64,000 bases of DNA from Candidatus Poribacteria bacterium. GTDB taxonomy: Bacteria > Poribacteria > WGA-4E > PCPOR2b. Positions 3,937-51,092 of this stretch are shown piece after piece. The notes below the pieces were generated by a model. It was not told the DNA's origin and ran no database searches. It saw only the letters and a program-made list of their open reading frames with translations. The stretch spans positions 768,001 through 832,000 of the forward strand of contig OZ242351.1 of assembly GCA_965208675.1 (NCBI GenBank), written 5' to 3'. Every line of letters starts with the position of its first letter. The stretch's first letter is position 1. The position numbers and the translations under genes were made by a program.

Positions 3937-4053
3937 AATAGCCGTCAGCCGTTAGCAATCAGTTGTCAGCCAGAGAGGGTTTTGGAAATTTTAAGAGTTT
4001 GTAACGGGCGCGACAATCTACTGACTACTGAATGCCGAGAATTGATGGCTATT
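3937..4053. repeat. Intergenic element flanked by inverted, degenerate heptamer-like repeats
   Basis: AATAGCCGTCAGCCGTTAGCAATCAGTTGTCAGC ... CTGACTACTGAATGCCGAGAATTGATGGCTATT; the terminal 11-mers are inverted (10/11 match). Confidence 0.55.
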
Positions 4054-4054
4054 C

Positions 4055-5263
4055 CTAAGTTTTTCCAACACCGAGTGATGTCTCGATTTGTTGGCTCACA
4101 TAAGACATCAAATAACAGAATACAAAATAGATTACCGCGACGAATAGGTATACTTCAGCTTGAAGTCCAAGCCAGTCAGGATTGGCAATAACGATTTTCG
4201 CTATGCCCAAAAGATCCAGCAGACCGACAATTGTAACGAGAGATGTATCCTTGAAAAGTGCTATGAATTGTCCAACAATCGCGGGTATGACTGACCGAAG
4301 TGCTTGCGGTAGGACGATAAACAGTGTTGACTGCACGTAGTTGAGTCCTAATGCTTGTGCTGCCTCATGTTGCCCTTTCGGAATTGCTTGAAGTCCACCT
4401 CGCACGTTCTCCGCCATGTAAGCGGCGGAGAAAAATGTTAGTGCCAACATGGCACGTAAGACTTTGTCGAGACGAACATCCGGCATGAAAATGGGAATCA
4501 TAATTTGTGCCATGAACAGAATTGTTATTAACGGCACGCCGCGAATTATCTCAATATAGGCAATCGAGACCCATTTGACAGCCGGTAAAGTGCTCCGCCG
4601 TCCTAATGCCAGCAGGACTCCGATAGGAAAACAGAAGCAGATACCGACAGCCGCCAAAATTAGCGTCAGAAGGAGTCCACCCCAATTCGTAGTGGGAACA
4701 GCGTTCTCGCCGAAGCCCCGTAGCATTATCAGCGTCCAAGGAAAAGAGAGTATCCATCCCACGAGGACCCAATGGCGCATTTTGAGTAAAAAGTCTCGAC
4801 AACGGATCCCAACGAAAAATAGAACTGCGATCAAGGCTACGCCGCCCAGTATCCACCCTCGAGTTGTCCAACTGAAGGTTGTCATGTCAACCGGCAGAAG
4901 GGTACATACGATTCCGGCCCCTCCAATACTGACGGCAAATCTGAGTGCCAGTCCACCCCAAATGCCGCCGCTTAGCCCCGCCAAGACACATACCGTATAA
5001 AGCACAATCCAGACCCGCCATATTTCGGTTTTCGGATAAGGACCGACTAAAAAGAGTCGCAGGTTGGCAGGGATAACATCCCAATTTGCATCTGTGAATG
5101 CCCAAACCAAAATCCCCTTCAGGACAAAGTACACAATGCCCAAGGCGAAAAGGGTTAATAAGGTGTTGTACCATGTACTAAAAAGGTTTTCCTTAAGCCA
5201 CGGCAACACCGCTTTTGAGCTATGAGGTGGTTTAACTTCTTGCGTATGTTCTAACTCAGACAC
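4055..5263 (-). CDS. aapM: Amino acid ABC transporter permease (AapM/BztC type)
   Basis: WLKENLFSTWYN, WGGLLLTL, RGVPLITILF, AENVRGGLQAIPKGQHEAAQALGL. Confidence 0.92.
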   Translation of the reverse strand: MSELEHTQEVKPPHSSKAVLPWLKENLFSTWYNTLLTLFALGIVYFVLKGILVWAFTDANWDVIPANLRLFLVGPYPKTEIWRVWIVLYTVCVLAGLSGGIWGGLALRFAVSIGGAGIVCTLLPVDMTTFSWTTRGWILGGVALIAVLFFVGIRCRDFLLKMRHWVLVGWILSFPWTLIMLRGFGENAVPTTNWGGLLLTLILAAVGICFCFPIGVLLALGRRSTLPAVKWVSIAYIEIIRGVPLITILFMAQIMIPIFMPDVRLDKVLRAMLALTFFSAAYMAENVRGGLQAIPKGQHEAAQALGLNYVQSTLFIVLPQALRSVIPAIVGQFIALFKDTSLVTIVGLLDLLGIAKIVIANPDWLGLQAEVYLFVAVIYFVFCYLMSYVSQQIETSLGVGKT

Positions 5264-5293
5264 TTTTTGGTGTTCCTTTTACCTGTTGCCCTG

Positions 5294-6448
5294 TTATCGT
5301 CCAATACGGTTAATCCAGCGGTTGTACCAATTCATGCCCGCCGATGTTGTCAAGCTCATGATTAGGTAACTCACCATAATCATAGCGAACACAGGTATAG
5401 ATTGCCCCGTTTGAAGCATCATAGTATGACCGATACTAAACATATCAGGGAACCCAATCGCAATCGCTAAACTTGAGTTTTTGGCGAGGTTCAAATACTG
5501 GCTGGTGAGCGGCGGTACGATAATCGGGACCGCTTGGGGCAGAACGACTAAGCGTAATGTTTGTCCTTCACTTAAACCTACCGCTCTAGCTGCTTCTCGT
5601 TGTCCCTTTACAACGGCTTGTATCCCGCTTCTCACGATTTCGGCGATGAATGCGCCTGTATAAACAGACAGCCCGATTAAAAGTGCAGAGAACTCGGGGG
5701 ACAGGTTCACTCCCCCGACAAAGTTGAAACCCTTCAAAACCGGAAAATCGAGCGTAAATGGCTTTTCAGGTGTTAGAAACCATCCCAAAATGGCTACGAT
5801 TAGAAAGCCGGGAAGCGCCCACTTGGCTCGAAAGCCGGGGCGTTCTAACCGTCGAAGTTGCCGCCAGCGCACGATGTAAAGAACTGCTGCCAAGATTAGA
5901 CCTGCGAGAAGGAATCCGCTCCATATTTTCAAGCTAGCAGTAGGTTCAGGTGAGGGGAAATAGAGCCCCCGTTGATTAATGAACACACCTCCGGCTAGTG
6001 ATATGCTCTCTCCGACTCTCGGGAGTTTCAGGATTACAGCACTGTACCAAAACAGTATTTGAAGGAGGAGTGGAATGTTGCGGAAACATTCAACGTAAAC
6101 GGCGGCTAAGGTTCGGATTAACCAGTTGCTGGAGAGGCGGGAGATGCCGGCAATAAACCCCAAAATCGTCGCGCAAATAATTCCTATGAAACTCACCTTT
6201 AGGGTGTTTACCACGCCCACCCAGAACGCTTTGAGGTACGTTTCTGAGGGTGAATATTCAATCCCTTCAGAGATGTCAAAACCGGCTTCATTCCCCAAAA
6301 AGTCAAGGTTGAGCGTTAACCCGAGCTTGCTCAACCCTCTTAACATGTTTGTGTAAAGAAGCCCCGCCAGCAGAACGACGCCTATAAGGAAAAGGATTTG
6401 GAGCAGCACACGCAGGACGCGGACATCTCGCCAAAAGGGAATGTTCAT
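5294..6448 (-). CDS. aapQ: Amino acid ABC transporter permease (AapQ/BztB type)
   Basis: FRNIPLLLQILFWY, AEIVRSGIQAV.KGQ.EAA, SQYLNLAKNSSLAIAIG. Confidence 0.92.
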   Translation of the reverse strand: MNIPFWRDVRVLRVLLQILFLIGVVLLAGLLYTNMLRGLSKLGLTLNLDFLGNEAGFDISEGIEYSPSETYLKAFWVGVVNTLKVSFIGIICATILGFIAGISRLSSNWLIRTLAAVYVECFRNIPLLLQILFWYSAVILKLPRVGESISLAGGVFINQRGLYFPSPEPTASLKIWSGFLLAGLILAAVLYIVRWRQLRRLERPGFRAKWALPGFLIVAILGWFLTPEKPFTLDFPVLKGFNFVGGVNLSPEFSALLIGLSVYTGAFIAEIVRSGIQAVVKGQREAARAVGLSEGQTLRLVVLPQAVPIIVPPLTSQYLNLAKNSSLAIAIGFPDMFSIGHTMMLQTGQSIPVFAMIMVSYLIMSLTTSAGMNWYNRWINRIGR

Positions 6449-6476
6449 AGGCTATTATAGTGGTGCCATGGTTTCT

Positions 6477-6508
6477 GATGAATACCTCAGTTGGCTGAGG
6501 TATTCATC
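6477..6508. terminator. Perfect 14-bp hairpin between aapJ and aapQ (attenuator or mRNA-stabilising element)
   Basis: GATGAATACCTCAG-TTGG-CTGAGGTATTCATC. Confidence 0.65.
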
Positions 6509-6540
6509 CGGTTATTTTCTTCTCTATGAGCAGTTTGCCC

Positions 6541-8385: not shown

Positions 8386-10377
8386 CTATTCTGAATCGAC
8401 CATTATCGACAACTCCTCCAACTGTTCGTCAGAGACTTCGGACGGTGCTCCGGTGAGTAAGCATAATCCTTTTTGCGTTTTTGGAAACGCGATGACTTCG
8501 CGAATATTCTCCTCGCCGGTCATTAGCATAATTATGCGGTCCAGACCGGGTGCAATTCCAGCGTGCGGCGGTGTGCCGTGTTGCAGGGCTTTTATGAAAT
8601 AACCGAATCGCCTTTCAACTTCTTCGGGACTAACGCTCAAAAGATCCAACACCTTCTGTTGAATGTCCCAACGATGAATTCGGACACTGCCGCTGCAAAT
8701 CTCGATGCCGTTGATGACGAGGTCGTAGTGTTGGGACCGGGCAGCACTAGGATCGGTATCCAAAAGAGGAACACTCTCGTCAGTGGGCGCTGTGAAGAGA
8801 TGGTGGAAGGGTTCGTAACGCCGTTCGTCGTCGTTCCATTCGAACAGCGGATAATCGACAATCCAGAGGAAGTTGAAACGACTCTCATCAATGAGACCGA
8901 GCTGCTTGCCGAGAAGAAGACGAAGGTTTGATAGCGCGTCTGCAACTACCCTTGGTTGGTCAGCGACGAACATCATTATGTCTCCCGGCTTCGCTCCCAT
9001 CCGCGCCGCTACCGCAGTGAGGGTGTGTTCGCTGAAAAACTTTACGATGCCGGACTCGAATCCGTTCTCGGTTACCTTTATCCACGCCAATCCTCTCGCT
9101 TTATAGATGGCGACGAAATCGGTTAAGTTTTCAATCTCTTTCCTAGAAAACGCGGCTCCACCGCAAACGGCGATGCCTTTTACCTGTCCATTTCGTTCCA
9201 AGGCGCCCTTAAACACCTTGAAGTCACAGTCGGCGACGAGGTCGGAAACTTCGGCGAGTTCCATCCCGAAGCGGGTATCCGGTTTATCGGTGCCGAACCG
9301 CGTCATTGCGTCGTCGTAAGCGAGGCGTGTAAACGGAATTTCCACGGATATGCCCGAGGCTTCCTCAAAAATCCGCTTCATCAAGCCTTCAGTGACTTCA
9401 AGGACATCGTCAACGGTCGCAAAGGACATCTCAAAATCGAGTTGTGTGAACTCAAGCTGGCGATCAGCGCGAGTGTCTTCATCCCGGAAGCAGCGGGGAA
9501 TCTGGAAGTAGCGATCTACGCCGCTCATCATGAGAATCTGCTTGAACTGTTGCGGCGATTGTGGAAGCGCATAGAAGTTGCCCGCGTTAAGACGGCTTGG
9601 CACCAGCACATCCCGCGCACCTTCAGGTGTACTATTCATCAGGATTGGGGTTTCGATTTCAAGAAATCCCTGTTCGTCCATGTACTTCCGGGCAGCAAGC
9701 ATAGCCTTGTGCCGGATGGCTAAAGATTTCTGCATCTTGGGACGGCGGAGATCGATGTATCGGTATGTCATGCGAATCTCTTCGTCGGTGTCGATGTCGT
9801 CCTCAACCAGAAACGGCGGCGTTTTGGCAACGTTTAAAATATCCAATTTTTGTGTTGCGACCTCAATCTCGCCCGTTGGGAGGTTGAGGTTTATTGTGCC
9901 CAAGTAAACGCTGACTTCGGTTGCAGTCATCTTTATAACGTAGGTTCGTTTACCTGCCCTGTCAGTAATCAGCCACTTGTCTACTTCGCCTCGGTTCACT
10001 ATCTCAACATTCTGGGATAGTGGGTGCCCGTTTGTCTTGAAAGCACCTCGAAATTCGTCTGAAAAATGCAAAGCCGCCAAATCGGTTTCATGTTCTAATC
10101 CGAGGTTGAATAATAGGTCGCCCTCTATCCGCTCTCGAACTGTGCCGCTCACGGCCAACACAAACTCGCCGCGAATTTGGTTTGCAACTTTATGGGCTTC
10201 AGCATCAATCTTGGGATCGAATACGACTTGTGTAATTCCCGTCCGATCCCGTAAGTCTGCGAAAATCACGCCGCCGTGGTCTCGACGGCGAGCAACCCAG
10301 CCAGTTAACTGCGCCGATTTACCGGCATCGGCGAGCCGCAACTCTCCACAATAGTGCGTCCTTTTCATTTCAGGCAT
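8386..10377 (-). CDS. aspS: Aspartate--tRNA ligase (probably non-discriminating), with a ~73-aa insertion
   Basis: RTHYCGEL, RRDHGGVIF, TPEGARD, ALPQSPQ.FKQ, YFQI.RCFRDED.RADRQ.EFTQLD, PPHAGIA.GLDR, IAFPKT. Confidence 0.98.
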   Translation of the reverse strand: MPEMKRTHYCGELRLADAGKSAQLTGWVARRRDHGGVIFADLRDRTGITQVVFDPKIDAEAHKVANQIRGEFVLAVSGTVRERIEGDLLFNLGLEHETDLAALHFSDEFRGAFKTNGHPLSQNVEIVNRGEVDKWLITDRAGKRTYVIKMTATEVSVYLGTINLNLPTGEIEVATQKLDILNVAKTPPFLVEDDIDTDEEIRMTYRYIDLRRPKMQKSLAIRHKAMLAARKYMDEQGFLEIETPILMNSTPEGARDVLVPSRLNAGNFYALPQSPQQFKQILMMSGVDRYFQIPRCFRDEDTRADRQLEFTQLDFEMSFATVDDVLEVTEGLMKRIFEEASGISVEIPFTRLAYDDAMTRFGTDKPDTRFGMELAEVSDLVADCDFKVFKGALERNGQVKGIAVCGGAAFSRKEIENLTDFVAIYKARGLAWIKVTENGFESGIVKFFSEHTLTAVAARMGAKPGDIMMFVADQPRVVADALSNLRLLLGKQLGLIDESRFNFLWIVDYPLFEWNDDERRYEPFHHLFTAPTDESVPLLDTDPSAARSQHYDLVINGIEICSGSVRIHRWDIQQKVLDLLSVSPEEVERRFGYFIKALQHGTPPHAGIAPGLDRIIMLMTGEENIREVIAFPKTQKGLCLLTGAPSEVSDEQLEELSIMVDSE

Positions 10378-10487: not shown

Positions 10488-11747
10488 TCACTGCGATGAT
10501 TTTTTCAGTGCCTTTCCCAACCTATCAAATTCAACCGCCCGCTGATTTCCACTTTCCATATCTCGAACCGTGGCCGCCCCATTCTTAATCTCATTTTCCC
10601 CAATAATCACGACATATTTCACTCCGAGCTTGTTTGCTGTTTTCATCTGTGCCTTCAAACTGCGTCCTTTGTATTCAAGGTCAGTTCTGATTTGGCTATC
10701 GCGGAGTTTTTCCGCCAATTGGAAGGCGATTGGCATTGCTTCTTCACCGAGTACGGCCATGTAAACGTCAATTGGCGGCTGCGGCGAAATCTCGATTTTT
10801 TGTGCTTCCAAGGCAAGCATTATGCGATCTACGCCAAGCCCAAAGCCAATCCCCGGAGTCGGTTTGTTGCCCAGTTCTTCGACCAGGTAATCGTACCGCC
10901 CACCCCCGCCGATAGCGTCTTGTGCACCGAGTCCGCCCGCCGTAAATTCAAACGTCGTGCGAGAGTAGTAATCCATTCCCCTAACTAGATTCTCATTCTC
11001 CACAAAATCAATGTTCAATAACTTGAGGTAACGTTTTACATCGTCGAAATGTTCGCGGCACGAATCGCTCAGATATTCCAGCAGTTTAGGTCCCTCAGAT
11101 AGAATTTCGCGGCACCCGATTTTGCAATCAAAAAGACGCAATGGGTTGCGATCATAGCGTCTTTGGCATTCTTGGCAAAACTGATCGAGACGTGCCTCTG
11201 TGAAAGCCTTGAGATCCGACACAAATTTTGGCCGGCAAGCTCGATCGCCAATGGTATTGAGGTGCAACGTCAAATCTTTGAAACCAAGACGCGAATAAAA
11301 TTTATGGGCTAACGCGATGACTTCCGCATCAACCGCAGGTTCAGCGGCGCCGAACACTTCCACTCCAACCTGCCAATGCTCACGATAACGTCCCGCCTGC
11401 GGTCGTTCATAGCGGTACATTCGCCCATTGTAATAAAGTTTCAAGACGCTCGCGCTTTCGAGCAGCCGATTTTGAATGACAGCGCGAACAACGGGTGCTG
11501 TCCCTTCTGGCCGCAGCGTGATGCTGCGATTGCCTTTGTCGTTGAAGGTGTACATCTCTTTTTCAACGATGTCGGTAGTATCTCCCACGCCCCGGACAAA
11601 TAGATCGGTATTTTCAAAAATTGGGGTGCGAATTTCCTGATACCCGTATGTCGAAAAAACAGACCTCGCGACGTTCTCCACCCACTGCCACGTTTGAGTC
11701 TGCGAAGGAAGGATATCTCTGGTGCCCTTGGGTGATTTAATCTGCAT
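10488..11747 (-). CDS. hisS: Histidine--tRNA ligase
   Basis: PKGTRD, LRPEGTA, YRYERPQAGRYRE, LVRGMDYY, GGGRYD. Confidence 0.98.
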   Translation of the reverse strand: MQIKSPKGTRDILPSQTQTWQWVENVARSVFSTYGYQEIRTPIFENTDLFVRGVGDTTDIVEKEMYTFNDKGNRSITLRPEGTAPVVRAVIQNRLLESASVLKLYYNGRMYRYERPQAGRYREHWQVGVEVFGAAEPAVDAEVIALAHKFYSRLGFKDLTLHLNTIGDRACRPKFVSDLKAFTEARLDQFCQECQRRYDRNPLRLFDCKIGCREILSEGPKLLEYLSDSCREHFDDVKRYLKLLNIDFVENENLVRGMDYYSRTTFEFTAGGLGAQDAIGGGGRYDYLVEELGNKPTPGIGFGLGVDRIMLALEAQKIEISPQPPIDVYMAVLGEEAMPIAFQLAEKLRDSQIRTDLEYKGRSLKAQMKTANKLGVKYVVIIGENEIKNGAATVRDMESGNQRAVEFDRLGKALKKSSQ

Positions 11748-12912: not shown

Positions 12913-15900
12913 TTACGATTTCGGTTGCATCGCCGCCTGAATTTGACGCCGTTGCTCCTGAAGTTCTGGGACACTCGGGGCAAGGCGCCGCGCATCGGAA
13001 TTGGCTTTCAATGCATCGTCATACTGCTTTTGGGTGACGTATAAATTCGCCAACTCACTGTATAGCAACGGCTCATCCGACGCAAGTTGTAATGCACGCT
13101 GGTATGAATTGATCGCCTTGCGAACTTCGTTCTCATCCGTGTGAATTTTCCCTAATATATAATGCCCGCGCCACAAATTTGGGTTGACTTCCAATGTCTT
13201 CTCTGCATATTGGCGCGCTTCCGGCACCATGTTTTTAAGACGGTAGATTGATGCCATAGCCGCGAATATTTCGGCGGGAAGATTTGAATCTAACGCTTCA
13301 AGGCGTTTGTAAGTCCGCAGCGCTTGATCATTGCGTTCTTGCCGTTCATAAATAGGTCCGAGTAGGAGGTAAAAATCTAGACGATTTGGTTCAAGTTCAA
13401 TCGCAGTCTCAATGGCTTTAGCAGCCTCGTTTAATTTCCCTTGGCCTTCGTAGATGACCGCGAGTTGAATGTAACCTTCCGTATCCCGTGGATTAGTTCG
13501 CAAAGCCTTTTTCACGACCTGTTCAAGTTGCTTGAGCTCTTTTTTCTCCTCTTCGCGCACCAATCCTGATGCAACACCTAGATGGTATCGAATCACTTCG
13601 TCACGGGGATTAATTGCCAATCCGCGGTTAAAATGTCCAAATGCTTCCTCATATTCTCCCGAAACATGGGCAAGTTGGCCTTGTATGAGATTCTGAGTGG
13701 CGTCGAAGTAAAGGTCTACCTTTTTTCTCACGTCGGTTTTCTCCGCCATCGATCTGCCATAATTTTTCAGGTACGGGTTGACTCGTTCGCGGTATTTCGC
13801 CATTGCCGAGATAATGCTCTTCTTGGCTCCTTCAGACCGGCTTGCACGGATTAACCCTAAATTCGGACGGCTATCCGAATAAACTGCGCCGTATCCGGCA
13901 TAGCTTCGGAGGGCATCGTCACCCATCATAAACGAATCTAGCAACGACATACCGTTAAGGTCATCGCTTGCGAGCGCATCGCCGATATTTGTAAATTGCG
14001 TTCTGCCCATGAAGTTTTCATAATCAATCTTGAGTCGTTCAGATGTGCCAATCAAGACGACGAAATCCGGTGTGTATTTGTACCATAGTGTTGTGTGAGG
14101 AAATACTTCAAGGAATGTCCTCAAAGCCATTTTGAAATGTGCTTCGGAGATTAAATTGAGTGGTAACCGCTGGCATAAAATACCATCTTCGTTCAAAGCT
14201 CGTTTGCAGAGCCGGTAGAATTCTGTTGTGTTGGTTTGCGAATACCATGCCGCGGGAGAGGATGTGAAGGACCTCACTGAGATGATGTCGTACTTTTCGC
14301 CCGCCACTAGCAGATAGTTCCGCTCGTCATCAATCGTCAAATTGAATTGGGGGTTGCTGAGAATATGGTGATTTACATTAGCGAAATGTGCGCGCGCTTC
14401 TTCAATGACATCTTTTGAAGATTCGACTGCATTCACATAAACGCCGTGTTGCGTCATAGAGTAGGCTGTCAAGCCCATGCCGAACCCAACTACAAGTGCA
14501 CTTTTCGGCTTAGGATGTAAGAGTACTGGGAGGTGGGCGATTAGGCGCTGTGAAGTATAGCCCCATCGGGAAGTATCAGCAATCTTACGCGCACCTACAT
14601 ACAACTTATGGGCACCCTTATCATCCGTGAACACCGACACTTCAGCATCAACGCCATGTTTATGGGAAATGATTGTGCTGCCCACGCCCCGTGTGAGGAA
14701 GCCCGAATTTCTGATGAACAGAGGGTTATCGCCTGCGTATAACACAATCAGTCCGAACCCAACGGTCAGGATTACTCCACCGGCCGCTGTGCCATTAAGG
14801 ATTTGCCTGGTGCGTACGGCGTTAGCTTGTGCTGAGAAAGTCGCGGCGCAACCCATAATCGCGCTCAAGGCCGATGTCAGGACAATGCCCTGACGAACGC
14901 TAATGAACGGCACAATGATGAACCCCGCGCACAACACTCCTGCGATTGCACCAACGATGTGCAAAGCGCTGACATTGCCAATACTGCGCCCTAATCGCGC
15001 CCCGTCGTGTGGGTAGATTCGCACTGCCAAAGGAAAACACCCGCCAATCAAAATTGCCGGAACAATCATCACGCCCGTACACCCAAAAAGTGTTGCAATC
15101 CCGCCGCCGATTGGAAGTAGTTCACCCAGAATCGGTATCGCCGCGACACCGGAAATCCCGATGGCAATCTGCATCAATCCGAACAAACTAATGCGAGATT
15201 TAACGCGGTCAGTTACTCGTGCGAATAACAAATTCCCGATAGCGATGCCGAACAGTAGGACTGCTAGGAATATTGTTGTCGCCGCAAAATCGAGCGAGTG
15301 CACCAAGGCGCGCCTCCAGAGCACTGCATACGTCATCGTGCAGAATCCGGACATAGCAAATGCCCAAAAAGCTAACCGAATCGGCGCAGGCGCCTCGGTT
15401 GTGTCTGGGCGTGATCCAGCGTGCGTTGCGGTTATATGCCCCTCGTCCTTAACACTCGAAATACCACTTACCGACTGCCGATGCAACCCAAAGGCTACGG
15501 CTGCCAAAACTAAATTAATGCCTGCGCAGATATAAAGAGACGGCTGAACCCCTAAAGTTTGCAATAGGACAAATCCCACTGCGAAGCATCCGATGGCGCC
15601 GCCAAGCATCTTGATACCGTTGAGAACGCCGACGTGGAATCCAAGACCGTCCGTACTCCGCACCAAAACCTTGCACAGGACAGGCAATGTGCCTCCCATC
15701 AGAATCGACGGGACAATCAGGTAGAGAAAGGATAGAGCAAACCGGATGAACAACAGCGAATAGAACTCCCCATTAAGACTGCGATAGACTAGAACGTAGG
15801 CGGCGTTTAGCACATTCAATAGCAATGGGGAGACAAGGGCAAATACACCGATGCCTATTTCAAGAATAGCATATAACCGTAGTGGACGATCTTCACGATC

Positions 15901-16089
15901 CGCGGCGCGGCCAAAATACAATGCCCCTACTGCCAATCCCGACATCAGTGCTATCAGGACCGTGCTAACCGGCAGCGTCGTGCCGCCAAAGATCAGTGTG
16001 AGTTGGCGTACCCAGATTACTTCGTATATCAAGCCAATGGCACCGGCAAAGAGGAAGATTAGCCGCACAACCGATTTTATATTCCGCAC
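12913..16089 (-). CDS. Membrane-fused spermidine-synthase-like protein with C-terminal TPR repeats
   Basis: LIYEVIWVRQLTLIFG N-terminal multi-TM domain; HLPVLLHPKPKSALVVGFGMGLT SAM-binding fold; about 7 TPRs. Confidence 0.85.
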   Translation of the reverse strand: MRNIKSVVRLIFLFAGAIGLIYEVIWVRQLTLIFGGTTLPVSTVLIALMSGLAVGALYFGRAADREDRPLRLYAILEIGIGVFALVSPLLLNVLNAAYVLVYRSLNGEFYSLLFIRFALSFLYLIVPSILMGGTLPVLCKVLVRSTDGLGFHVGVLNGIKMLGGAIGCFAVGFVLLQTLGVQPSLYICAGINLVLAAVAFGLHRQSVSGISSVKDEGHITATHAGSRPDTTEAPAPIRLAFWAFAMSGFCTMTYAVLWRRALVHSLDFAATTIFLAVLLFGIAIGNLLFARVTDRVKSRISLFGLMQIAIGISGVAAIPILGELLPIGGGIATLFGCTGVMIVPAILIGGCFPLAVRIYPHDGARLGRSIGNVSALHIVGAIAGVLCAGFIIVPFISVRQGIVLTSALSAIMGCAATFSAQANAVRTRQILNGTAAGGVILTVGFGLIVLYAGDNPLFIRNSGFLTRGVGSTIISHKHGVDAEVSVFTDDKGAHKLYVGARKIADTSRWGYTSQRLIAHLPVLLHPKPKSALVVGFGMGLTAYSMTQHGVYVNAVESSKDVIEEARAHFANVNHHILSNPQFNLTIDDERNYLLVAGEKYDIISVRSFTSSPAAWYSQTNTTEFYRLCKRALNEDGILCQRLPLNLISEAHFKMALRTFLEVFPHTTLWYKYTPDFVVLIGTSERLKIDYENFMGRTQFTNIGDALASDDLNGMSLLDSFMMGDDALRSYAGYGAVYSDSRPNLGLIRASRSEGAKKSIISAMAKYRERVNPYLKNYGRSMAEKTDVRKKVDLYFDATQNLIQGQLAHVSGEYEEAFGHFNRGLAINPRDEVIRYHLGVASGLVREEEKKELKQLEQVVKKALRTNPRDTEGYIQLAVIYEGQGKLNEAAKAIETAIELEPNRLDFYLLLGPIYERQERNDQALRTYKRLEALDSNLPAEIFAAMASIYRLKNMVPEARQYAEKTLEVNPNLWRGHYILGKIHTDENEVRKAINSYQRALQLASDEPLLYSELANLYVTQKQYDDALKANSDARRLAPSVPELQEQRRQIQAAMQPKS

Positions 16090-16312: not shown

Positions 16313-17199
16313 GAGCCTGTTTGAAAAAGAAAAAAGATGTCTGAACGGTTGATGTTTACGTTTACTCACTGGAGCAGTTGATTCCGAACCAATGAAGGGA
16401 GTAAACATGAACCGAAAACGTTATCCTAGTGATTTGACCGATGTACAATGGCAGAAACTGTCAGCGTTTCTGCCAACCCCTCAACCATTAGGTAGACCTC
16501 TAAAATGGGAGATGTACTTAATTGTCCATGCCATCTTTTATGTCGTCAAGTCCGGTTGCCAGTGGCGAATGCTACCATACGATATGCCACCGTGGCAAAC
16601 CGTCTATTACCATTTTAGGAAGTGGGAAGCCGACAATACATGGCTCTTGATTCATCAGGCACTTCACGAACAATCACGCTGTGATGGTGGCAAAGAACCA
16701 TCACCGACAGCAGCTATCATTGACAGCCAATCCATTAAGACAACTGAACTGGCGACGACTCGCGGTTTTGATGGTCACAAGAAGGTCAAAGGACGCAAAC
16801 GACATCTAGTAACGGATACGACGGGTATTCCATTGATGGTCAAAGTCACTGACGCGAATGTCAGTGATAATCAGATTGCTATCGAGTTACTAACAGAAGT
16901 GTTTAGCTGGTACATAACCATTCAGTTGGTGTGTGCCGATGCCGCCTATCGTGGAGAATTGGAAGACTGGTTATATTTTGCTCATCAATGTCAACTGGAG
17001 ATTGCATCTACGCTAGGACAGCAGAAGTTTGAAGTTATCCCGTTACGATGGATTGTTGAGCGCACATTTTCTTGGCTTGGTTGGTTTCGTCGATTGACTT
17101 TGGATTATGAACGCTATCCTAGGACTGCTGAGACTATGGTGTACATCGCTTCCATTTACTTAATGCAAAATCGAATCAAATGACTTTTCAAACAGGCTC
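16313..17199 (+). mobile_element. Complete IS5-family insertion sequence (IS1031-like group), 887 bp
   Basis: IRs GAGCCTGTTTGAAAA / TTTTCAAACAGGCTC; TAA direct repeat on both sides (16310-16312 and 17200-17202). Confidence 0.93.
16407..17183 (+). CDS. IS5-family transposase
   Basis: YPSDLTD.QW, GCQWRMLP.D.PPWQTVY, IIDSQS, KKVKGRKRH, ADAAY, RWIVERTFSWL...RRL..DYER. Confidence 0.95.
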   Translation: MNRKRYPSDLTDVQWQKLSAFLPTPQPLGRPLKWEMYLIVHAIFYVVKSGCQWRMLPYDMPPWQTVYYHFRKWEADNTWLLIHQALHEQSRCDGGKEPSPTAAIIDSQSIKTTELATTRGFDGHKKVKGRKRHLVTDTTGIPLMVKVTDANVSDNQIAIELLTEVFSWYITIQLVCADAAYRGELEDWLYFAHQCQLEIASTLGQQKFEVIPLRWIVERTFSWLGWFRRLTLDYERYPRTAETMVYIASIYLMQNRIK

Positions 17200-37657: not shown

Positions 37658-38614
37658 TTACCCAATCCTATACTTTCCCAACCCGAACATTGCGTTATTG
37701 CCGACGTGCAGGAGTTCGCCTAGCACTACGAACGGCATAAACATCGCTAGTTCACCTTCATAAGTAACATTACCAACCAGTCCGTCGAACTGCGCCTTTT
37801 TATCCTGCCGCGACGCATGTTGTGTCACATCTTTCCACTCAAGTGAGGTTTCGGTCGTTTTAACAGTCTTCGCCTTTTCAATTAGTTCTTTAAAGTCGAT
37901 TTCTAGCGATTCACCGCAATGGAAATACGCCAGCGCCGAGATGCGTTCAATCAAATGCTTCCAGAAGACGTGGAACGGCAGCTTATCCATTAACTCTCCG
38001 TCATGCGCGATCCGTGTTGGTGCCAGTAGATGCAGCGTCAAGGTATTCAATGAGTCAAAACGCGCAGCGAGCAATGATAAGGCTTCCCTCTGAATCTCGG
38101 CAAATCTGAGAGCGTTATCAAAATTGTGCACCATCTGCGTGTCGCTATCATAGACCGACTCCCTGCTGTCGGTCAGGACTTGGGTCAACTGAAAGCGCCC
38201 ACGCTTCTTGCCAATGCCGCTCTCGCCCAAGTCGCGGAAACTGACTAAAAAATATGGCAGGTAATCAATAGCACGGCCGATGAGTGTAAGTTGAAATGCG
38301 AAGGATTCGCCGCGGCGGTATTCGCCTTGCGTACCTAACGGATCAATTACGAACGGTCTGGGCACATCGTCGTAGGATGGGAACTGATCCGCTCCTTCGA
38401 AGGGGGCGGTTTCAAAGTTGTAAGGGTAGGAACAGACTGTTTTGAGGGTGCAATCTCGGCAGTCAATGGATCCTTGCGTGCAGACCAACTTTCGGAATGC
38501 CGGTCCCAATCCCGCCCGGAGGGTAGAGCCGGTGTAAGGCGGCATCATAATTGTTGATCGCGCCGTTAGAATCACATGGTAACGCGCAAGCCGGAAGTTT
38601 TGCAGTAAGCTCAT
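37658..38614 (-). CDS. cas6: Cas6-family RAMP endoribonuclease (standalone, Zn-finger-containing type)
   Basis: GSTLR.G.G, C-x6-CxxC-x5-C, VPRPFVI, LTLIG, GIG..RG.F.L, SRQ, C-terminal G-rich loop LHVGNNAMFGLGKY. Confidence 0.88.
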   Translation of the reverse strand: MSLLQNFRLARYHVILTARSTIMMPPYTGSTLRAGLGPAFRKLVCTQGSIDCRDCTLKTVCSYPYNFETAPFEGADQFPSYDDVPRPFVIDPLGTQGEYRRGESFAFQLTLIGRAIDYLPYFLVSFRDLGESGIGKKRGRFQLTQVLTDSRESVYDSDTQMVHNFDNALRFAEIQREALSLLAARFDSLNTLTLHLLAPTRIAHDGELMDKLPFHVFWKHLIERISALAYFHCGESLEIDFKELIEKAKTVKTTETSLEWKDVTQHASRQDKKAQFDGLVGNVTYEGELAMFMPFVVLGELLHVGNNAMFGLGKYRIG

Positions 38615-41092: not shown

Positions 41093-42148
41093 ATGCCAGA
41101 TAACGAGAAGTCCGAAAGCCTGCTTCAACCTGAAGAACTGAGCCCCGCTGTCGATCTTGCGGCGAGAGCACTTGCGGAACTCGACCGCATCCTCCTCGGT
41201 CGTTCCGATTTGCATCGCATGGTGCTCATCGGAATTCTGAGTCATGGACACATTCTGCTTGAGGGAGTGCCCGGAGTCGGTAAAACTGCACTTGTGAAGG
41301 CGTTGGGTCAGCTACTTAACCTCGAATTCAACCGCGTCCAGTTCACGCCAGACTTGATGCCGGGCGACATTGTCGGTACACATATACTGCAGCAATCCTC
41401 GGAGGGGAACCGGGAAATGACGTTCCAAGCGGGACCAGTTTTCACGAACATCCTGCTCGCCGATGAGATTAACCGCGCTTCTCCGAAAACCCAATCCGCA
41501 TTGCTTGAAGCAATGCAGGAGCGGTGCGTCACGCTGCTTGGGAATACTCGCCAGTTGCCGAATCCTTTTTTCGTCCTAGCCTCTCAAAACCCTATCGAAT
41601 TGGAGGGAACGTATCCGCTCCCCGAAGCGCAGTTGGATCGATTCCTGTTCAAACTAATCGTCCCTAACGCCGATGTGGAGGTGCTCGACGACATTATCTC
41701 AACCCGCCGGCGCGGCGAACCGCCCGTACCCGCATGGTCAATGCACGCCGAGGAACTGCATCAGCTATTCGATGTGATGGATAAAATATTTTTGCCCAAG
41801 CCCGTTTCGCGATACATTTCACGTTTGACCGCATCTACCCATCCAAATTTTCCTGAGTCTACCGATGATGTTAGAAGATACGTTACCTACGCCGCATCGC
41901 CGCGAGCTGCCATAGCGATGGCGGAGGCGGCGCGAGCCTCTGCTTTGATTTCGGGCCGCCCAACGGTTGGATTTGAAGATGTAAAATTAGTCGCTCCGTC
42001 CGTGCTGAATCACCGCGTAATTTTGAATTATCAGGCCCGCTTCGATAGTGTGGATACCTTCGCAGTAGTGAGTAGTCTTCTTGACTCCCTTGACGAAACT
42101 AACTTGAATCTGCCCGATGACGTTGAGATCCGATTCGAGTCAGAGTGA
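41093..42148 (+). CDS. moxR: MoxR-family AAA+ ATPase
   Basis: HILLEGVPGVGKT, RVQFTPDLMP.D, LADEINRASPKTQSALLEAMQE, QNPIELEGTYPLPEAQLDRF. Confidence 0.96.
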   Translation: MPDNEKSESLLQPEELSPAVDLAARALAELDRILLGRSDLHRMVLIGILSHGHILLEGVPGVGKTALVKALGQLLNLEFNRVQFTPDLMPGDIVGTHILQQSSEGNREMTFQAGPVFTNILLADEINRASPKTQSALLEAMQERCVTLLGNTRQLPNPFFVLASQNPIELEGTYPLPEAQLDRFLFKLIVPNADVEVLDDIISTRRRGEPPVPAWSMHAEELHQLFDVMDKIFLPKPVSRYISRLTASTHPNFPESTDDVRRYVTYAASPRAAIAMAEAARASALISGRPTVGFEDVKLVAPSVLNHRVILNYQARFDSVDTFAVVSSLLDSLDETNLNLPDDVEIRFESE

Positions 42149-42275: not shown

Positions 42276-44390
42276 GTGAAGCATTCCACGCCTTATTCCA
42301 TCCTCTTTCTTGCCGCCGTGTGGCTGTGTTATACCGAATCTAGTACATTCGCGCAGAAACATTTTGACGATATAATAATTACACCGGAACTCACCCCAAG
42401 CGGCAGTAGTTTCCACGGATATGCGGAATACAGAATTAATGTATCTAATCGCTCGCCTGACAAAGCGCATCTCGTAACATTGGCGTTGCCGAAGACCAAT
42501 TACGGAATGTTTGGCAATCAAATCCGAAAAATCACCCGTTCAGTAATTGTCGGCCCCTCCGCTACTGCCCGGGTCACCTTGTTTCAGCCTTCAGTAAGGC
42601 TAGATGGACACGGTCTAGAAGTCACCATAGACGGTAAAGTGCAAGATGACGCGGCTCCACTGTCTATCGGCAATCACGGCAGCCACGACAACTTTTTCAT
42701 GCGTCACCACACGGCGGGTATGCCGCACGCGGTACGCAGCAGCAATCCTGAGATTCGAATTTTGATTAGTCGCAGTGTGGACACAGCCGATTTGCATACG
42801 CACGTGGGTAATCAACTCCACACTTTGAGGTCAACAGGCGGCTTCTCACCATCTGGAGGTGTACCTCACCCATTTGCACCGCCAAGTTCGGGAACCGGTT
42901 ATGAAACCATCGACCTCGGATTCCCGGTTTCGGCGTGGAGCACCAGTTGGCTCGGTTATTCTCGATACGACAGCGTGATTGTCACAGGCGATGACGTTAA
43001 AATGATGCCGCCGGATGTTCAATCCGCGTTGTGGCGCTACGTGGAATGCGGCGGCGCTCTACTTGTATTGGGAGGACGGGAACTTCCCAATATTTGGGGG
43101 TTGAAGCCCGCGCCCGACACTACCGAATTTGATAACAATCATGTCGGTTTCGGTCAGTGCATCGTGACAGCTGACGTGAATACCACTCACTTAACGCCAG
43201 AACTGTGGTCTGAGATTGTGTCTTCGTGGTTGAAGACTGAAAATCCGGGGAGAACCGGTCGGACGGTTGAGGGTGCTAATGCGATGTTTCCGGTGGTGGA
43301 AGGTCTAGGGGTTCCTGCGCGCGGCATGTACCTATTAATGCTCCTGTTCGCCGTCACGATTGGCCCGGTGAACCTCATAATACTGTCGCGAAAAAAACGG
43401 GGCATCTGGATGCTTTGGATAGTGCCGGCAATCTCGCTCATGACGTGTCTCGCTGTCTTTGTGTACGCGACGTTCGCCGAAGGGTGGGAACGACACGCCC
43501 GAATCGAAGGGCTAACACTACTCAACGAAAAGACTCACCGCGCCACAACAATTGGTTGGACTGCGTTCTATTCAGCGCTCACGCCATCCGACGGTTTGCA
43601 CTTCGGTTATGATACGGAGTTGACGCCCCAAATTGCCTCTTCTCAGATGGCTGGTACACCTCGCTCGGTCGACTGGACGAACGGCCAACACATGGTAAGC
43701 GGTTGGATGACTGCGCGCGTTCCGGCGCATTTCATGCTGCGCAAGAGCGAAGTGAGGCGTGAGCGTGTCACGGTTAGACGGGGAACAGATAAACGCCTAA
43801 GCATTGTTAACGGTCTAGGAGCTGTCATAAAACAGTTCTGGTTGGCAGATTATGATGGTGCAATCTATTTTGGAAAGGACATTCCTGCAGGTGCGGAAGC
43901 GGAATTGAGTGCGCGTACGCAATTGCGTCTAGGCAACCCTGGTAGAGTTGATGAGACATTTCAATTTGAACTATGGGATTCATCTGTCAATATGGATCTG
44001 GATGCCGGGGAAATGTCCCCATTGCTAAGGGACGAGATGAAATGGCGAGGCGAGCCGCTCTCCGATGATGTTTCCGTAGCCGTTTCAAAGCACGGTCATG
44101 AGTGGGTGATAACGGATAGCCTCTTGAATCGGACTTACACCATTAAGGCAGACATTATCGACGGCCCACTCCGAATTCATAGTAACGCAGCGCCTAGTTT
44201 GCGGGGTATATTTGCCGCTGATGATTGGATTCACAACATTAATTATCTCAAGGAAGCTCCGGTAAACTATCTCCGCCGCAACTGTTATATCGCAGAATTA
44301 TCGTCTGCTCCATTTATTGAGGAGGGACTTCGAAACACGACAGAAAAAAGATATAGCTCCGTCGTTTATGGCATTTTGGACGAGGAATGA
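42276..44390 (+). CDS. Membrane protein with GATase-like extracellular domain (MoxR/vWA/ABC cluster) and an inserted ~75-aa domain
   Basis: Signal peptide; W.GYSRYD...ALWRYVECGG.L; TM pair with IGPVN; insertion at about 43950-44180. Confidence 0.8.
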   Translation: MKHSTPYSILFLAAVWLCYTESSTFAQKHFDDIIITPELTPSGSSFHGYAEYRINVSNRSPDKAHLVTLALPKTNYGMFGNQIRKITRSVIVGPSATARVTLFQPSVRLDGHGLEVTIDGKVQDDAAPLSIGNHGSHDNFFMRHHTAGMPHAVRSSNPEIRILISRSVDTADLHTHVGNQLHTLRSTGGFSPSGGVPHPFAPPSSGTGYETIDLGFPVSAWSTSWLGYSRYDSVIVTGDDVKMMPPDVQSALWRYVECGGALLVLGGRELPNIWGLKPAPDTTEFDNNHVGFGQCIVTADVNTTHLTPELWSEIVSSWLKTENPGRTGRTVEGANAMFPVVEGLGVPARGMYLLMLLFAVTIGPVNLIILSRKKRGIWMLWIVPAISLMTCLAVFVYATFAEGWERHARIEGLTLLNEKTHRATTIGWTAFYSALTPSDGLHFGYDTELTPQIASSQMAGTPRSVDWTNGQHMVSGWMTARVPAHFMLRKSEVRRERVTVRRGTDKRLSIVNGLGAVIKQFWLADYDGAIYFGKDIPAGAEAELSARTQLRLGNPGRVDETFQFELWDSSVNMDLDAGEMSPLLRDEMKWRGEPLSDDVSVAVSKHGHEWVITDSLLNRTYTIKADIIDGPLRIHSNAAPSLRGIFAADDWIHNINYLKEAPVNYLRRNCYIAELSSAPFIEEGLRNTTEKRYSSVVYGILDEE

Positions 44391-44605
44391 GTATCAAATT
44401 ACATTACAATTTAGGTGGGAATAAACGTAACTTTTGTTGGAGATTGTACGTAGCGCAACAAGACACTTGTCTCAATCTATCGCTTTGGGAAGAAATCTTA
44501 ATGACGAAGATCTAGACCTACAAATCAAGACCGATTGGTTTTTGTGTACCGCGTATAGTGCCATGAATAGCGGTGCAAACCGCTTTAAACCAAGGGAGTT
44601 CTCCG

Positions 44606-45535
44606 ATGCAAATCAATGTCGATCACGTCAAGAAATATTTCGGCCGAACCCGCGCCGTTGACAATATTTCATTCTCGTTTTCATCGGGAGACGTTGTCGG
44701 TTTTGTCGGTCCCAATGGCGCCGGCAAAACTACGATGATGAGAATCTTGGCGACACTTGATGAGCCGACGAGTGGTGACGCCACGATTGACGGTGTCTCT
44801 ATTGTCGAAGCCCCGGAAAATGCCCGCCGGCTGGTTGGGTATGTGCCGGACGCTCTTCCGGCGCACCGGGATATCTCTGTACACGACTACTTGGACTTTT
44901 TCGCCCGCGCTTACGGACTGGGCAGCGTCAAGCGTAAACAGGTGGTCGAAAGTATAGAAGGTTTTACTAACCTTACCGGTATTCGAGAAAAAACTCTTTA
45001 CGCACTATCAAAGGGTATGAAACAACGAGTTAGTCTTGCACGCGCGCTCGTACACGACCCGCCGGTATTGGTGATGGATGAGCCAGCCGCAGGGCTCGAT
45101 CCGCGGGCACGGGTCGAACTGAGAGAACTCTTGAGGATTCTTTCCGGTGATGGAAAAGCCATTCTAATTAGCTCGCACATCCTAACCGAACTCTCGGAAA
45201 TCTGCGACGGCGCAGTCATAATTGAACAGGGCAAGATTGTCGCATCTGGAAACCTACAAGAAATCGCTGGCCAGGGTACAGAGCAGTGCACGGTTGTGAT
45301 TCGATCTCTCAACCGGCAAGACGAAATGTATAAGGCGATGCTCATAATGCCGAACGTGGCGGCGGTAAATCAGTTGGGCGGCGAGATAGAGGTGAAAATC
45401 TCCGGATCGGAAGACACCTGCAGCGAACTGCTCGAAATTCTGATAAAGAGTGGATATCGAATCGTTGAGTTCAAACAACGGGGCAGCGATTTGGAATCGG
45501 TGTTCATGAATGTAACAACAGGGGTAGTGCAATGA
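44606..45535 (+). CDS. ABC-2-type transporter ATP-binding protein
   Basis: GPNGAGKTT, LSKGMKQR, MDEPAAGLDP, ISSHIL. Confidence 0.94.
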   Translation: MQINVDHVKKYFGRTRAVDNISFSFSSGDVVGFVGPNGAGKTTMMRILATLDEPTSGDATIDGVSIVEAPENARRLVGYVPDALPAHRDISVHDYLDFFARAYGLGSVKRKQVVESIEGFTNLTGIREKTLYALSKGMKQRVSLARALVHDPPVLVMDEPAAGLDPRARVELRELLRILSGDGKAILISSHILTELSEICDGAVIIEQGKIVASGNLQEIAGQGTEQCTVVIRSLNRQDEMYKAMLIMPNVAAVNQLGGEIEVKISGSEDTCSELLEILIKSGYRIVEFKQRGSDLESVFMNVTTGVVQ

Positions 45536-47049
45536 ATTTCGTTACGGTTCTTCTTGAAAAATTTACCGACTCGCTCAATCCCATCGTTGTCAAAGAGTTG
45601 CGGCAAGCGGTGCAAGGCAAACTTTTTAGCGTGATATTGATGGTGTTTCTCGGATTGCTGCTGCTTACTATGGGATTATTCTTATCAAGTGAAACCATGG
45701 AATTGTCTTTCAATGCGGGGCGTAACCTATTTGGAGTATTGATCAGTATTTTACTAGGCACATGCTTGCTATTCGTACCGGCATATACGGGCATCCGGTT
45801 GGGAGCCGAACGGTCAGACGCCAACGTCGACCTGCTGTTCATAACGACGCTGCCGCCGCGTTCCATAATATGGGGCAAATTCCTCGCCGCCCTTGTGCTT
45901 ACCGTCTTGCTTTACAGCGCGTGCCTGCCGTTTATGACCTTTACTTATTTGTTGCGGGGCGTTGACTTGCCGTCCATTTTTGTCCTCATGGCGTTCACTT
46001 TTATTATTGCGGGGGTTGCCATCCAGTGCGCCATCTTTCTCGGTTGCATTCCTGCCAATCGGTTCTTCAGAGTAATACTCGGCGTTGGGTGGCTTGTCGC
46101 TGTAGCTTCCAGCATTCCAACATTGAGTATCATGATGTATGCTCCTGGCGGACTCCTTAACTCCGGCATAGGCAGCCTCATAGGGACATGGCGATTCTGG
46201 CGAATCGCACTGAGCGTGTTGGCTGGCGGGATGGCACTGATAAGTCTACTTGGTCTATTGTCAATCGCACTAATTAGCCCACTGTCGAGTAATCGAGCAC
46301 TGCCGGTGCGGCTCTTTGTCGCCGGAGTTTGGTTCTTAACCGGCATTGGCACCACAATTTGGAGCATTGCATCAAATAACCTCACTCCAGTCGGAGTGTG
46401 GGCAGCCGCGCACGTTCTTCTACATTCCATCGGTCTATTAATTGCAGTGAGCGAGAGAGAGCATTTAGGGCTACGGGTTAGCCACAGCATTCCGCGTAGA
46501 CGTTGGCGCCGTCCGCTCGCGTTTCTCTTTTACAGCGGTGCAGCCGGAGGCGTTTTGTGGTCATCGCTAACGATTGTCCTCACTCTAATTACTATTGTCG
46601 TATTAGTGGAGCGTTACCCGCTCATGTGGACCGGACAGTTTTATAACGATTTTCTGACAATAAATATCGTCATACCGCTCCACGCGTTAATCTATGCTCT
46701 AGGTGCCTCGATCATAAGAAGACGCTTCTTCGCAAATCGTATCTCCGGCGGTTATACCTGCCTCATAGCGATAATATTGTTCGGCGTTACGACGATGATT
46801 GTACCGCTCATTCTGTTTTTCATAACCGGAATTTGGCAAAAAGACTGGTTGGTTGGCAGTCCTATTGGCCCCATCCTTGCCGTCCCGGACAGTGAGTACC
46901 ACCTTGCCTACAGCAGTTTGGGAATAGCGGTCGTTGGTGCATTGCTAGTCTGTGCCTTAAGTATTCCGTGGTTTTTCAGACAAATCCGCAATTTTCATCC
47001 GCCAAATAAAAACACCACGCCTCAATTCCGGACAAATGAGCCTAGTTAA
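45532..47049 (+). CDS. ABC-2-type transporter permease
   Basis: NPIVVKELRQ, ER....DLLFIT.L....IIWGK; multiple TM helices; ATGA overlap with the ATPase gene. Confidence 0.88.
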   Translation: MNFVTVLLEKFTDSLNPIVVKELRQAVQGKLFSVILMVFLGLLLLTMGLFLSSETMELSFNAGRNLFGVLISILLGTCLLFVPAYTGIRLGAERSDANVDLLFITTLPPRSIIWGKFLAALVLTVLLYSACLPFMTFTYLLRGVDLPSIFVLMAFTFIIAGVAIQCAIFLGCIPANRFFRVILGVGWLVAVASSIPTLSIMMYAPGGLLNSGIGSLIGTWRFWRIALSVLAGGMALISLLGLLSIALISPLSSNRALPVRLFVAGVWFLTGIGTTIWSIASNNLTPVGVWAAAHVLLHSIGLLIAVSEREHLGLRVSHSIPRRRWRRPLAFLFYSGAAGGVLWSSLTIVLTLITIVVLVERYPLMWTGQFYNDFLTINIVIPLHALIYALGASIIRRRFFANRISGGYTCLIAIILFGVTTMIVPLILFFITGIWQKDWLVGSPIGPILAVPDSEYHLAYSSLGIAVVGALLVCALSIPWFFRQIRNFHPPNKNTTPQFRTNEPS

Positions 47050-48550: not shown

Positions 48551-48834
48551 GCGCAAAATCAGGTGCCTCCGAATTATCTGCATTGTGACACTTGATATAT
48601 TCCATCAGAGATTGTAGTCTAATGACAATCTACATTTCCGCTCACGACTGGCTGGTTTCACCTGTAGCCAACGTTTGTCGCTCGCGTTACTGTGCCCCAA
48701 TTTCAGAAAAGCACGGTGAATTGAGCGTAAATGCACCATTGAAAAATCTCGATACTGACATTTTGAATAGGCACACATTGTGTCTACGACTTACAGACTG
48801 AAGGATATTTGAACCCGAAACGGAGGCAAGACAC

Positions 48835-50877: not shown

Positions 50878-51092
50878 GTTACGCACCTACAATCTCCGAT
50901 TGTGCGACCTACAGAGACATTTCTAATGTTATGGATAGCGTCTATTGCCGAAATATATTGGAAATCCGCAACATGGCGTTTCACTTGGACGCTTTGTAGT
51001 AATTGAGTTAGTTAATGTGACACATAAGCGGACATTTCAGTAGACACAGTTCTTTTGATATAGTACGCCACACAGGCACGATTCATCAATTC

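Follow-up and report, generated by a model that had tools for sequence, protein, structure and literature searches.

Rickettsia palindromic elements (RPEs) are DNA repeats of ~150 bp that are recognisable at the DNA level and occur in tens of copies. Domain insertions, in turn, are found in 20% of multidomain proteins, and the survey that reports this figure describes inserted domains as typically small with close termini, gives a median termini distance of 14.3 Å for them and names aminoacyl-tRNA synthetases (aaRSs) as frequent hosts of inserts (Schaeffer et al. 2026, PMC13114784). Bacterial aspartyl-tRNA synthetase (AspRS) carries one such insertion, the GAD domain, which defines the bacterial-type enzyme generally and sits in its catalytic core (PMC4206432). 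Here we describe an additional insert in the AspRS of a sponge-symbiont-type Candidatus Poribacteria bacterium, encoded by the gene aspS within a 64,000-nt stretch of DNA (assembly GCA_965208675.1, contig OZ242351.1, positions 768,001 to 832,000 of the forward strand; this whole stretch is referred to below as the window). The insert is a small module that interrupts the oligonucleotide/oligosaccharide-binding (OB) fold of the anticodon-binding domain and has homologs in two further hosts, a 704-aa membrane protein encoded in the same window and an MprF-like protein of an uncultured bacterium. Our analysis indicates that this is probably an ordinary insertion, into a loop of the AspRS OB-fold, of an autonomously folding insert-type domain from an undescribed family. 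The novelty lies in the domain family, for which no library tried contained a match, and in the insertion site; inserts in aaRSs as such are well known.

The host of the insert is an otherwise canonical AspRS and probably a functional housekeeping enzyme, which would retain its activity with the module in place. Its sequence matches the class II D/K/N catalytic core over the full profile (PF00152, E 1.2e-115, aa 198-635, profile positions 1-308) and contains the GAD domain (PF02938, E 7.1e-27, aa 389-482). It also scores 824.3 bits against the NCBIfam equivalog NF001750 (cutoff 443), with the match falling into two stretches, and 74 PDB sequences match it at E ≤ 0.001 (best E 1.2e-176). Since hisS and aspS form a same-strand pair, aspS looks like the housekeeping copy. 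No tRNA gene was found in the 64-kb window.

The position of the insert follows from where the matches to known AspRS sequences break off and resume. The Pfam match to the OB-fold (PF01336, E 1.5e-15) spans aa 24-86 and ends at position 63 of the 75-position profile, having started at position 3. In the alignment to the solved Thermus thermophilus AspRS (6hhv/1efw), query residues 4-85 pair with chain residues 2-81 and query residues 163-660 with chain residues 83-578, and because the alignment thus jumps from query residue 85 to 163 between chain residues 81 and 83, ~76 residues are extra in the Poribacteria enzyme. The main stretch aligned to the Escherichia coli enzyme (1c0a) begins at query residue 162, which pairs with chain residue 83. 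The insertion site lies between OB-fold strands 4 and 5, a few residues ahead of the conserved G-E-I-E-V strand. An initial annotation, made from the DNA alone, had placed 73 extra residues at aa 87-159 (9901..10119), and the break in PF01336 together with the PDB alignments shows this placement to be accurate to a few residues. Judging from its homology to the third copy, described below, the module itself seems to be slightly longer and to span about aa 86 to aa 166. Among the PDB matches listed, 10 AspRS chains of bacterial or mitochondrial type are long (580-620 aa), and none of them has an insert at the strand 4-5 site. The literature searched contains no account of such an insert or of the domain, a statement that reaches no further than that literature.

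The module is not confined to AspRS. In the 704-aa membrane protein, residues 574-624 match the core of the AspRS insert with 20/51 positions identical (BLASTP, 35.4 bits, E 7e-6), which reproduces the ungapped 51-residue match that had been claimed for this pair. A phmmer comparison of the insert with all six-frame segments of the window, 1,232 in number, found the 704-aa protein at E 7.5e-5 and nothing else below E 1. The best non-self BLASTP score of the insert, 36.2 bits, compares with a mean of 21.1 (standard deviation 1.66, maximum 26.2) for 200 shuffled versions of it, none of which reach 35 bits (0/200). The shuffle test and the E values therefore establish that the similarity of the two window copies is real homology. 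A two-sequence hidden Markov model (HMM) found no third copy in the window, its next match having an E value of 0.039, and a four-sequence HMM recovered the four known copies only (next E 0.18) from 1,845 segments that cover the window and the two related loci introduced below, ~96 kb in total.

These two loci came from a scan of 185,579 species genomes in which a match had to agree exactly with one or the other of two 9-residue patterns taken from the two window copies. The patterns are very narrow; they gave 64 matches, and 2 of the 64 were confirmed. The first locus, L001, lies on a Candidatus Poribacteria metagenome-assembled chromosome (OZ242326.1) that is syntenic with the window, with 89-95% nucleotide identity over three blocks of ~14.3 kb in total, so that the window very probably derives from a near relative of this genome. 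It encodes an ortholog of the 704-aa protein (637/704 residues identical), module included. Between these two orthologs, the non-synonymous divergence (dN) is 0.043 in the module and 0.047 in the host, that is, an equal protein rate, and we make no statement on selection from the ratio of non-synonymous to synonymous divergence (dN/dS, 0.58 for the module vs 0.257 for the host) because it rests on counts as small as 4 synonymous and 8 non-synonymous differences.

The second locus, L002, comes from an uncultured bacterium and encodes a 618-aa MprF-like protein with six hydrophobic segments and an LPG_synthase_C domain (PF09924, E 8.1e-81, aa 307-597). Residues ~157-235 of this protein match the AspRS insert over the whole module (41.6 bits, E 8e-8), and the protein likewise matches the 704-aa protein (34.3 bits, E 2e-5). 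In the alignment to solved MprF (7f47), query residues 11-138 pair with chain residues 346-474 and query residues 267-596 with chain residues 511-839; this gap means that ~90 extra residues, comprising the module, lie between the last two membrane helices. By sequence comparison, then, the module is present in three unrelated host contexts, and in two of them, AspRS and the MprF-like protein, it is demonstrably a loop insertion. All pairwise comparisons of the three contexts are significant and a stand-alone fold is predicted, in agreement with the earlier proposal of a self-contained module common to unrelated proteins. Directly upstream of the gene for the MprF-like protein, L002 carries an 847-aa open reading frame (ORF; 3981..6524) that by eye resembles a P-type cation-transporting ATPase.

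The four module sequences share invariant positions (L, S, R, G, L-S, W-x-I-T-D and Y), and structure prediction points to a compact fold. AlphaFold2, run on an 83-residue segment with an alignment of the four sequences, gave a predicted local distance difference test (pLDDT) score of 88.6 and a predicted template modelling (pTM) score of 0.78. The predicted order of elements is a strand (3-10), two helices (12-19 and 25-33) and four further strands (42-46, 52-57, 62-68 and 73-78). When AspRS residues 1-200 were modelled, the module had a pLDDT of 77-91 and the same secondary structure, and its end strands extended as residues 81-92 and 155-165. The OB part of this model is unreliable (pLDDT below 50), and the model was therefore kept out of the geometry and the fold search. 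The extended end strands hint that the OB hairpin may continue into the module and that the module termini may be adjacent.

In the initial annotation, a match to an already characterised, vertically inherited domain was to count against its reading, and no significant match was found in Pfam, NCBIfam, PHROGs, PADLOC, PDB or BFVD. With Foldseek, there were 0 matches at E ≤ 0.001 in the PDB, where the best was profilin (E 0.21, query-normalised template modelling score ~0.4), and 0 at the same threshold in BFVD. A profile search of PDB sequences with the module gave a best E of 0.48. Neither of two module sequences matched any Pfam family at E ≤ 10, NCBIfam and PADLOC gave 0 matches, and PHROGs gave 0 for 2/3 sequences, the copy from L002 reaching only phrog_4083 at E 0.019. 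This last lead was dismissed as chance: tblastn against phages gave one match at E 2, in an E. coli phage, and the module HMM gives the 120-aa protein annotated at that place a score of -0.8 bits. Best scores of 0.78 and 0.84 in the ESM Atlas were also set aside, as they lie in a range that shuffled proteins also reach. Within the reach of the libraries searched, the module is an unclassified small alpha+beta domain of ~75-80 residues.

These properties lend themselves to a simple rationale for the insert. A small self-folding domain would have been captured in the strand 4-5 hairpin loop of the OB-fold, creating a host-insert-host architecture. The first and last strands of the domain would continue the two adjoining strands of the OB-fold, an arrangement that would bring the ends of the domain next to each other and still allow the barrel to close. 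This adjacent-termini geometry would also explain how the module is tolerated in a loop between transmembrane helices of the MprF-like protein and how it comes to be present in the C-terminal region of the 704-aa protein. The domain would be genetically mobile in the evolutionary sense only, having been shuffled between genes by recombination long ago, with no active DNA element involved. In AspRS, the module would project from a loop next to the bound anticodon. Its effect there is most likely that of a neutral or accessory surface appendage, and perhaps it contacts the anticodon stem-loop or influences it sterically.

Several observations weigh against an ordinary domain insertion, and most of them bear on the alternative that the insert is an in-frame mobile genetic element, either similar to RPEs or to miniature inverted-repeat transposable elements or of a new kind, which encodes a foldable module, enters loops of genes, essential ones among them, and generates a short target duplication. 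An exact 8-nt direct repeat, TCAACCTC, brackets the AspRS insert with a spacing of 222 nt and could be a target-site duplication. The GGGC that had been reported on both flanks is indeed found at 10123-10120 and 9901-9898 of the minus strand, and this 4-mer, trivial alone, shares the 222-nt register of the longer repeat; borders with GGGC and TCAACCTC in this register are identical at 14/26 nt. An 8-mer repeated at 204-234 nt occurs in ~1.5% of 31-nt zones in the window, which sets the chance level for this single, post hoc test. The insert also has a lower GC content than the rest of aspS, both overall and at third codon positions (GC/GC3 0.452/0.479 vs 0.522/0.582), a difference of ~1.8 standard errors by a rough estimate. 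As signs of mobility, the repeat and the lower GC3 are suggestive, weak and post hoc. In addition, a genome with just two copies would be unlikely to have both of them within 64 kb, although the window was flagged because of these copies. A weak further point is that OZ242326.1 yielded the membrane-protein copy and no AspRS copy in the exact-pattern scan, a result that says little because the patterns are narrow and even the membrane-protein ortholog matched just one of the two. An insert-type position in two unrelated hosts is what such an element would produce, and RPEs provide a precedent for in-frame insertion into unrelated genes (PMC10969869).

A mobile element is, however, difficult to reconcile with the DNA of the copies. 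Over the core, the two window copies are identical at 72/153 nt, third codon positions agree at chance level (13/51), and the module copies are 37-40% identical in protein. The insert DNA shows no palindromic folding (z -1.03; 33/200 shuffles fold at least as well), and no terminal inverted repeats were found, with 0/14 inverted-repeat pairs joining the two insert borders. The other two copies lack flanking repeats comparable to TCAACCTC. Across the 185,579 genomes, the confirmed matches number two, albeit with narrow patterns, and tblastn gave no match in plasmid collections with three versions of the module or in a phage collection with the AspRS copy. We therefore consider a mobile element unlikely. 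The initial annotation had offered, as one of two readings, a spreading module analogous to RPEs; the part of this interpretation that holds is a module shared among unrelated proteins, whereas the RPE analogy is not supported in view of the missing DNA similarity between copies, the missing palindrome and terminal inverted repeats, and the absence of a further copy from the six-frame segments of the window and both related loci. Separately, an imperfect 10-nt repeat flanking the membrane-protein copy with an out-of-frame spacing of 251 nt was rejected as a chance occurrence.

A more specific version of the mobile-element explanation, which we hold to be somewhat less likely again, is that a ~222-nt coding cassette is an unrecognised in-frame element with TCAACCTC as its target duplication, whose old copies have lost their DNA similarity and whose younger copies would be found elsewhere in the Poribacteria. 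Such a cassette would survive by encoding a self-folding domain with adjacent termini, even at the anticodon-specificity loop of an essential synthetase. In a bolder variant, the AspRS insert would have been recruited to change how the enzyme tells tRNA-Asp from tRNA-Asn.

The membrane topology of the other two hosts bears on what the module might do. In the MprF-like protein, the module is placed between hydrophobic segments 137-151 and 270-284, and Lys/Arg-rich loops follow segments 2 and 4. As the substrate of the synthase domain is aminoacyl-tRNA, this domain, which follows segment 6, must be cytoplasmic, and the order of segments then places the module on the outer side of the membrane; the module of the MprF-like protein is thus predicted to lie outside the cytoplasm. 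The N-terminus of the 704-aa protein resembles a signal peptide, and its two hydrophobic segments (aa 356-370 and 382-396) are connected by a loop rich in K/R. From this signal-peptide-like start and the two membrane segments, its C-terminal region with the module is predicted to be outside as well. The protein has a sub-threshold Pfam match to GLMA_2nd only and no match in NCBIfam, PADLOC or PDB. The gene immediately before it encodes a MoxR-type AAA_3 ATPase, and after it come an ABC ATPase and a 505-aa protein without a Pfam match, followed a few kb on by a 917-aa VWA protein and a DUF58 protein, forming a MoxR/DUF58/VWA-type neighbourhood (41093..42148, 42276..44390, 44573..47049, 51093..53846 and 54633..55505).

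Given its place on the anticodon side of AspRS, the module might be a tRNA-related accessory that alters tRNA recognition, for example of tRNA-Asp vs tRNA-Asn at position 36. A recent preprint implicates a loop in the anticodon-binding domain of AspRS in the tolerance of U36 in tRNA-Asn (bioRxiv 10.64898/2026.05.03.722492). The proximity of the insertion to the G-E-I-E-V strand is compatible with such a role, and AspRS (PF00152) and the MprF-like protein (PF09924), two of the three hosts, both act on tRNA substrates. From the structural literature on AspRS, we take the U36-tolerance loop to be the strand 4-5 loop. The link between AspRS and the aminoacyl-tRNA-dependent synthase is nevertheless weakened by the predicted extracytoplasmic placement of the module in both membrane hosts. 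Moreover, nothing known connects the 704-aa protein with tRNA, and the fold search matched no nucleic-acid-binding fold. With AspRS in the cytoplasm and the modules of the membrane hosts outside, a single compartment-specific ligand such as tRNA is unlikely for all three, and we regard a shared tRNA-related function as improbable.

The same division between compartments affects the proposal that the module is an interaction or localisation tag, which would bind a partner common to its hosts, be it a protein, an envelope component or a membrane surface, and thereby tether AspRS. That two of the three hosts are membrane proteins fits this idea, as do the polar positions kept in all copies (S, R, S and the W-x-I-T-D strand) and the resemblance of the best fold matches to small adaptor-type folds, profilin and roadblock-like (query-normalised template modelling scores 0.38-0.41), none of which is significant. 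A single partner shared between the cytoplasm and the outside is unlikely, however; no partner is identifiable, and the fold matches are at noise level in both PDB and BFVD. We consider a tag to be just as improbable as a tRNA-related module. The coordinates of the features discussed are collected in Table 1.

Table 1. Positions of the AspRS insert, its host gene and borders, and the second module copy in the window.
Feature	Position	Strand	Basis or remarks
aspS, host of the insert	8386..10377	minus	663-aa bacterial-type aspartyl-tRNA synthetase; ORF and translation
OB-fold anticodon-binding domain, N-terminal part (aa 24-86; strands 1-4)	10120..10308	minus	PF01336; T. thermophilus AspRS residues 2-81
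Inserted module, aa ~86-166	~9880..10122	minus	without counterpart in solved AspRS; homologous to the copies in the 704-aa protein and L002
OB-fold strand 5, resuming after the insert (aa 167-180, including conserved G-E-I-E-V)	9838..9879	minus	T. thermophilus AspRS alignment
8-nt direct repeat TCAACCTC, left copy	10102..10109	minus (coding-strand reading)	repeat search
8-nt direct repeat TCAACCTC, right copy	9880..9887	minus (coding-strand reading)	repeat search
hisS	10488..11747	minus	directly upstream of aspS; PF13393 E 1.9e-45 and HGTP_anticodon
704-aa membrane protein, unknown family, host of the second copy	42276..44390	plus	translation, hydropathy
Second module copy, aa 558-640 (ungapped core aa 574-624 = 43995..44147)	43947..44195	plus	BLASTP, HMM matches, four-sequence alignment

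The window holds several other features. Synteny with OZ242326.1 breaks around a GmrSD-type restriction endonuclease gene (48835..50877; PF03235, PF07510 and DUF5655), where 2,543 nt of the window (48551..51093) stand opposite 1,878 unrelated nt of L001 (12569..14446), marking a variable defence spot. A gene for a Cas6-like endoribonuclease (37658..38614; PF10040, E 2.4e-15) is present, with no other cas gene among the scanned ORFs. Between 17828 and 32976 lie six paralogous Laminin_G_3 (concanavalin-like) proteins of 254-311 aa, starting at 17828, 18998, 19862, 27691, 31279 and 32194; among their genes are those for two PD40 beta-propeller proteins, a GH116 glycosidase and sugar metabolism, all on the minus strand. 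An IS4/IS5-family DDE transposase (16392..17183; DUF4096 and DDE_Tnp_1) separates this cluster from a gene (12913..16089) for a 1,058-aa protein with a spermine/spermidine-synthase-like domain (aa 514-676) and a long C-terminal TPR array; the start of this 1,058-aa protein overlaps the end of an upstream 413-aa ORF. A TonB-dependent receptor is apparently split into two overlapping ORFs, 55806..58250 (Plug and the start of the barrel) and 58214..58696 (the end of the barrel, profile positions 314-436), which may reflect a frameshift or a sequencing error. At the end of the window, a protein of more than 1,629 aa (59113..63999, running off the end) combines an N-terminal TPR array with the alpha-2-macroglobulin domains MG2, MG3, A2M_BRD and A2M.

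If our interpretation is correct, the catalogue of aaRS insertions gains a small domain family not described before and an unusual site, an anticodon-adjacent loop of the OB-fold in a housekeeping AspRS. The insert would also provide a natural example of a compact domain that widely differing hosts can accommodate and that, by prediction, is found inside as well as outside the membrane, which is of value for understanding what makes domains insertable and for protein engineering. The locus would be considerably more interesting if the insert altered tRNA-Asp/tRNA-Asn discrimination or were carried by an in-frame mobile cassette.

Comparison with described systems places the module closest to inserted domains. 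Like inteins, it is an in-frame insertion at a conserved site of an essential enzyme. Unlike them, it starts with G-D-L and ends with Y-L-G; as the initial annotation had noted, the translation shows no N-terminal Cys or Ser and no C-terminal His-Asn, and the downstream Thr alone fits an intein. The module, at ~75-80 residues, is also below the minimum size of mini-inteins, and its predicted fold has no significant match to any solved structure, a result of the PDB search, which included no direct comparison with inteins. With RPEs, the module shares the character of an extra in-frame peptide that occurs in unrelated genes, housekeeping genes included, and is apparently compatible with folding of the host (PMC10969869). 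Unlike RPEs, its copies lack DNA similarity and a palindrome, number two in the window and encode a full predicted domain instead of a short peptide. The MprF-like protein resembles the lysyl-phosphatidylglycerol synthase/flippase MprF in having LPG_synthase_C and membrane helices that can be aligned to the solved structure, and it differs in carrying, between the last two membrane helices, the ~90-residue module that 7f47 lacks. Being small, predicted to fold by itself and probably equipped with adjacent termini, the module fits the properties that the domain-insertion survey reports for inserted domains (PMC13114784). The nearest parallel is within AspRS itself: the GAD insertion is also a compact separate domain that interrupts a host domain and belongs to a family found in other proteins as well, but it occupies a catalytic-core site, whereas the new module, which has no Pfam match, occupies the strand 4-5 loop of the OB-fold.

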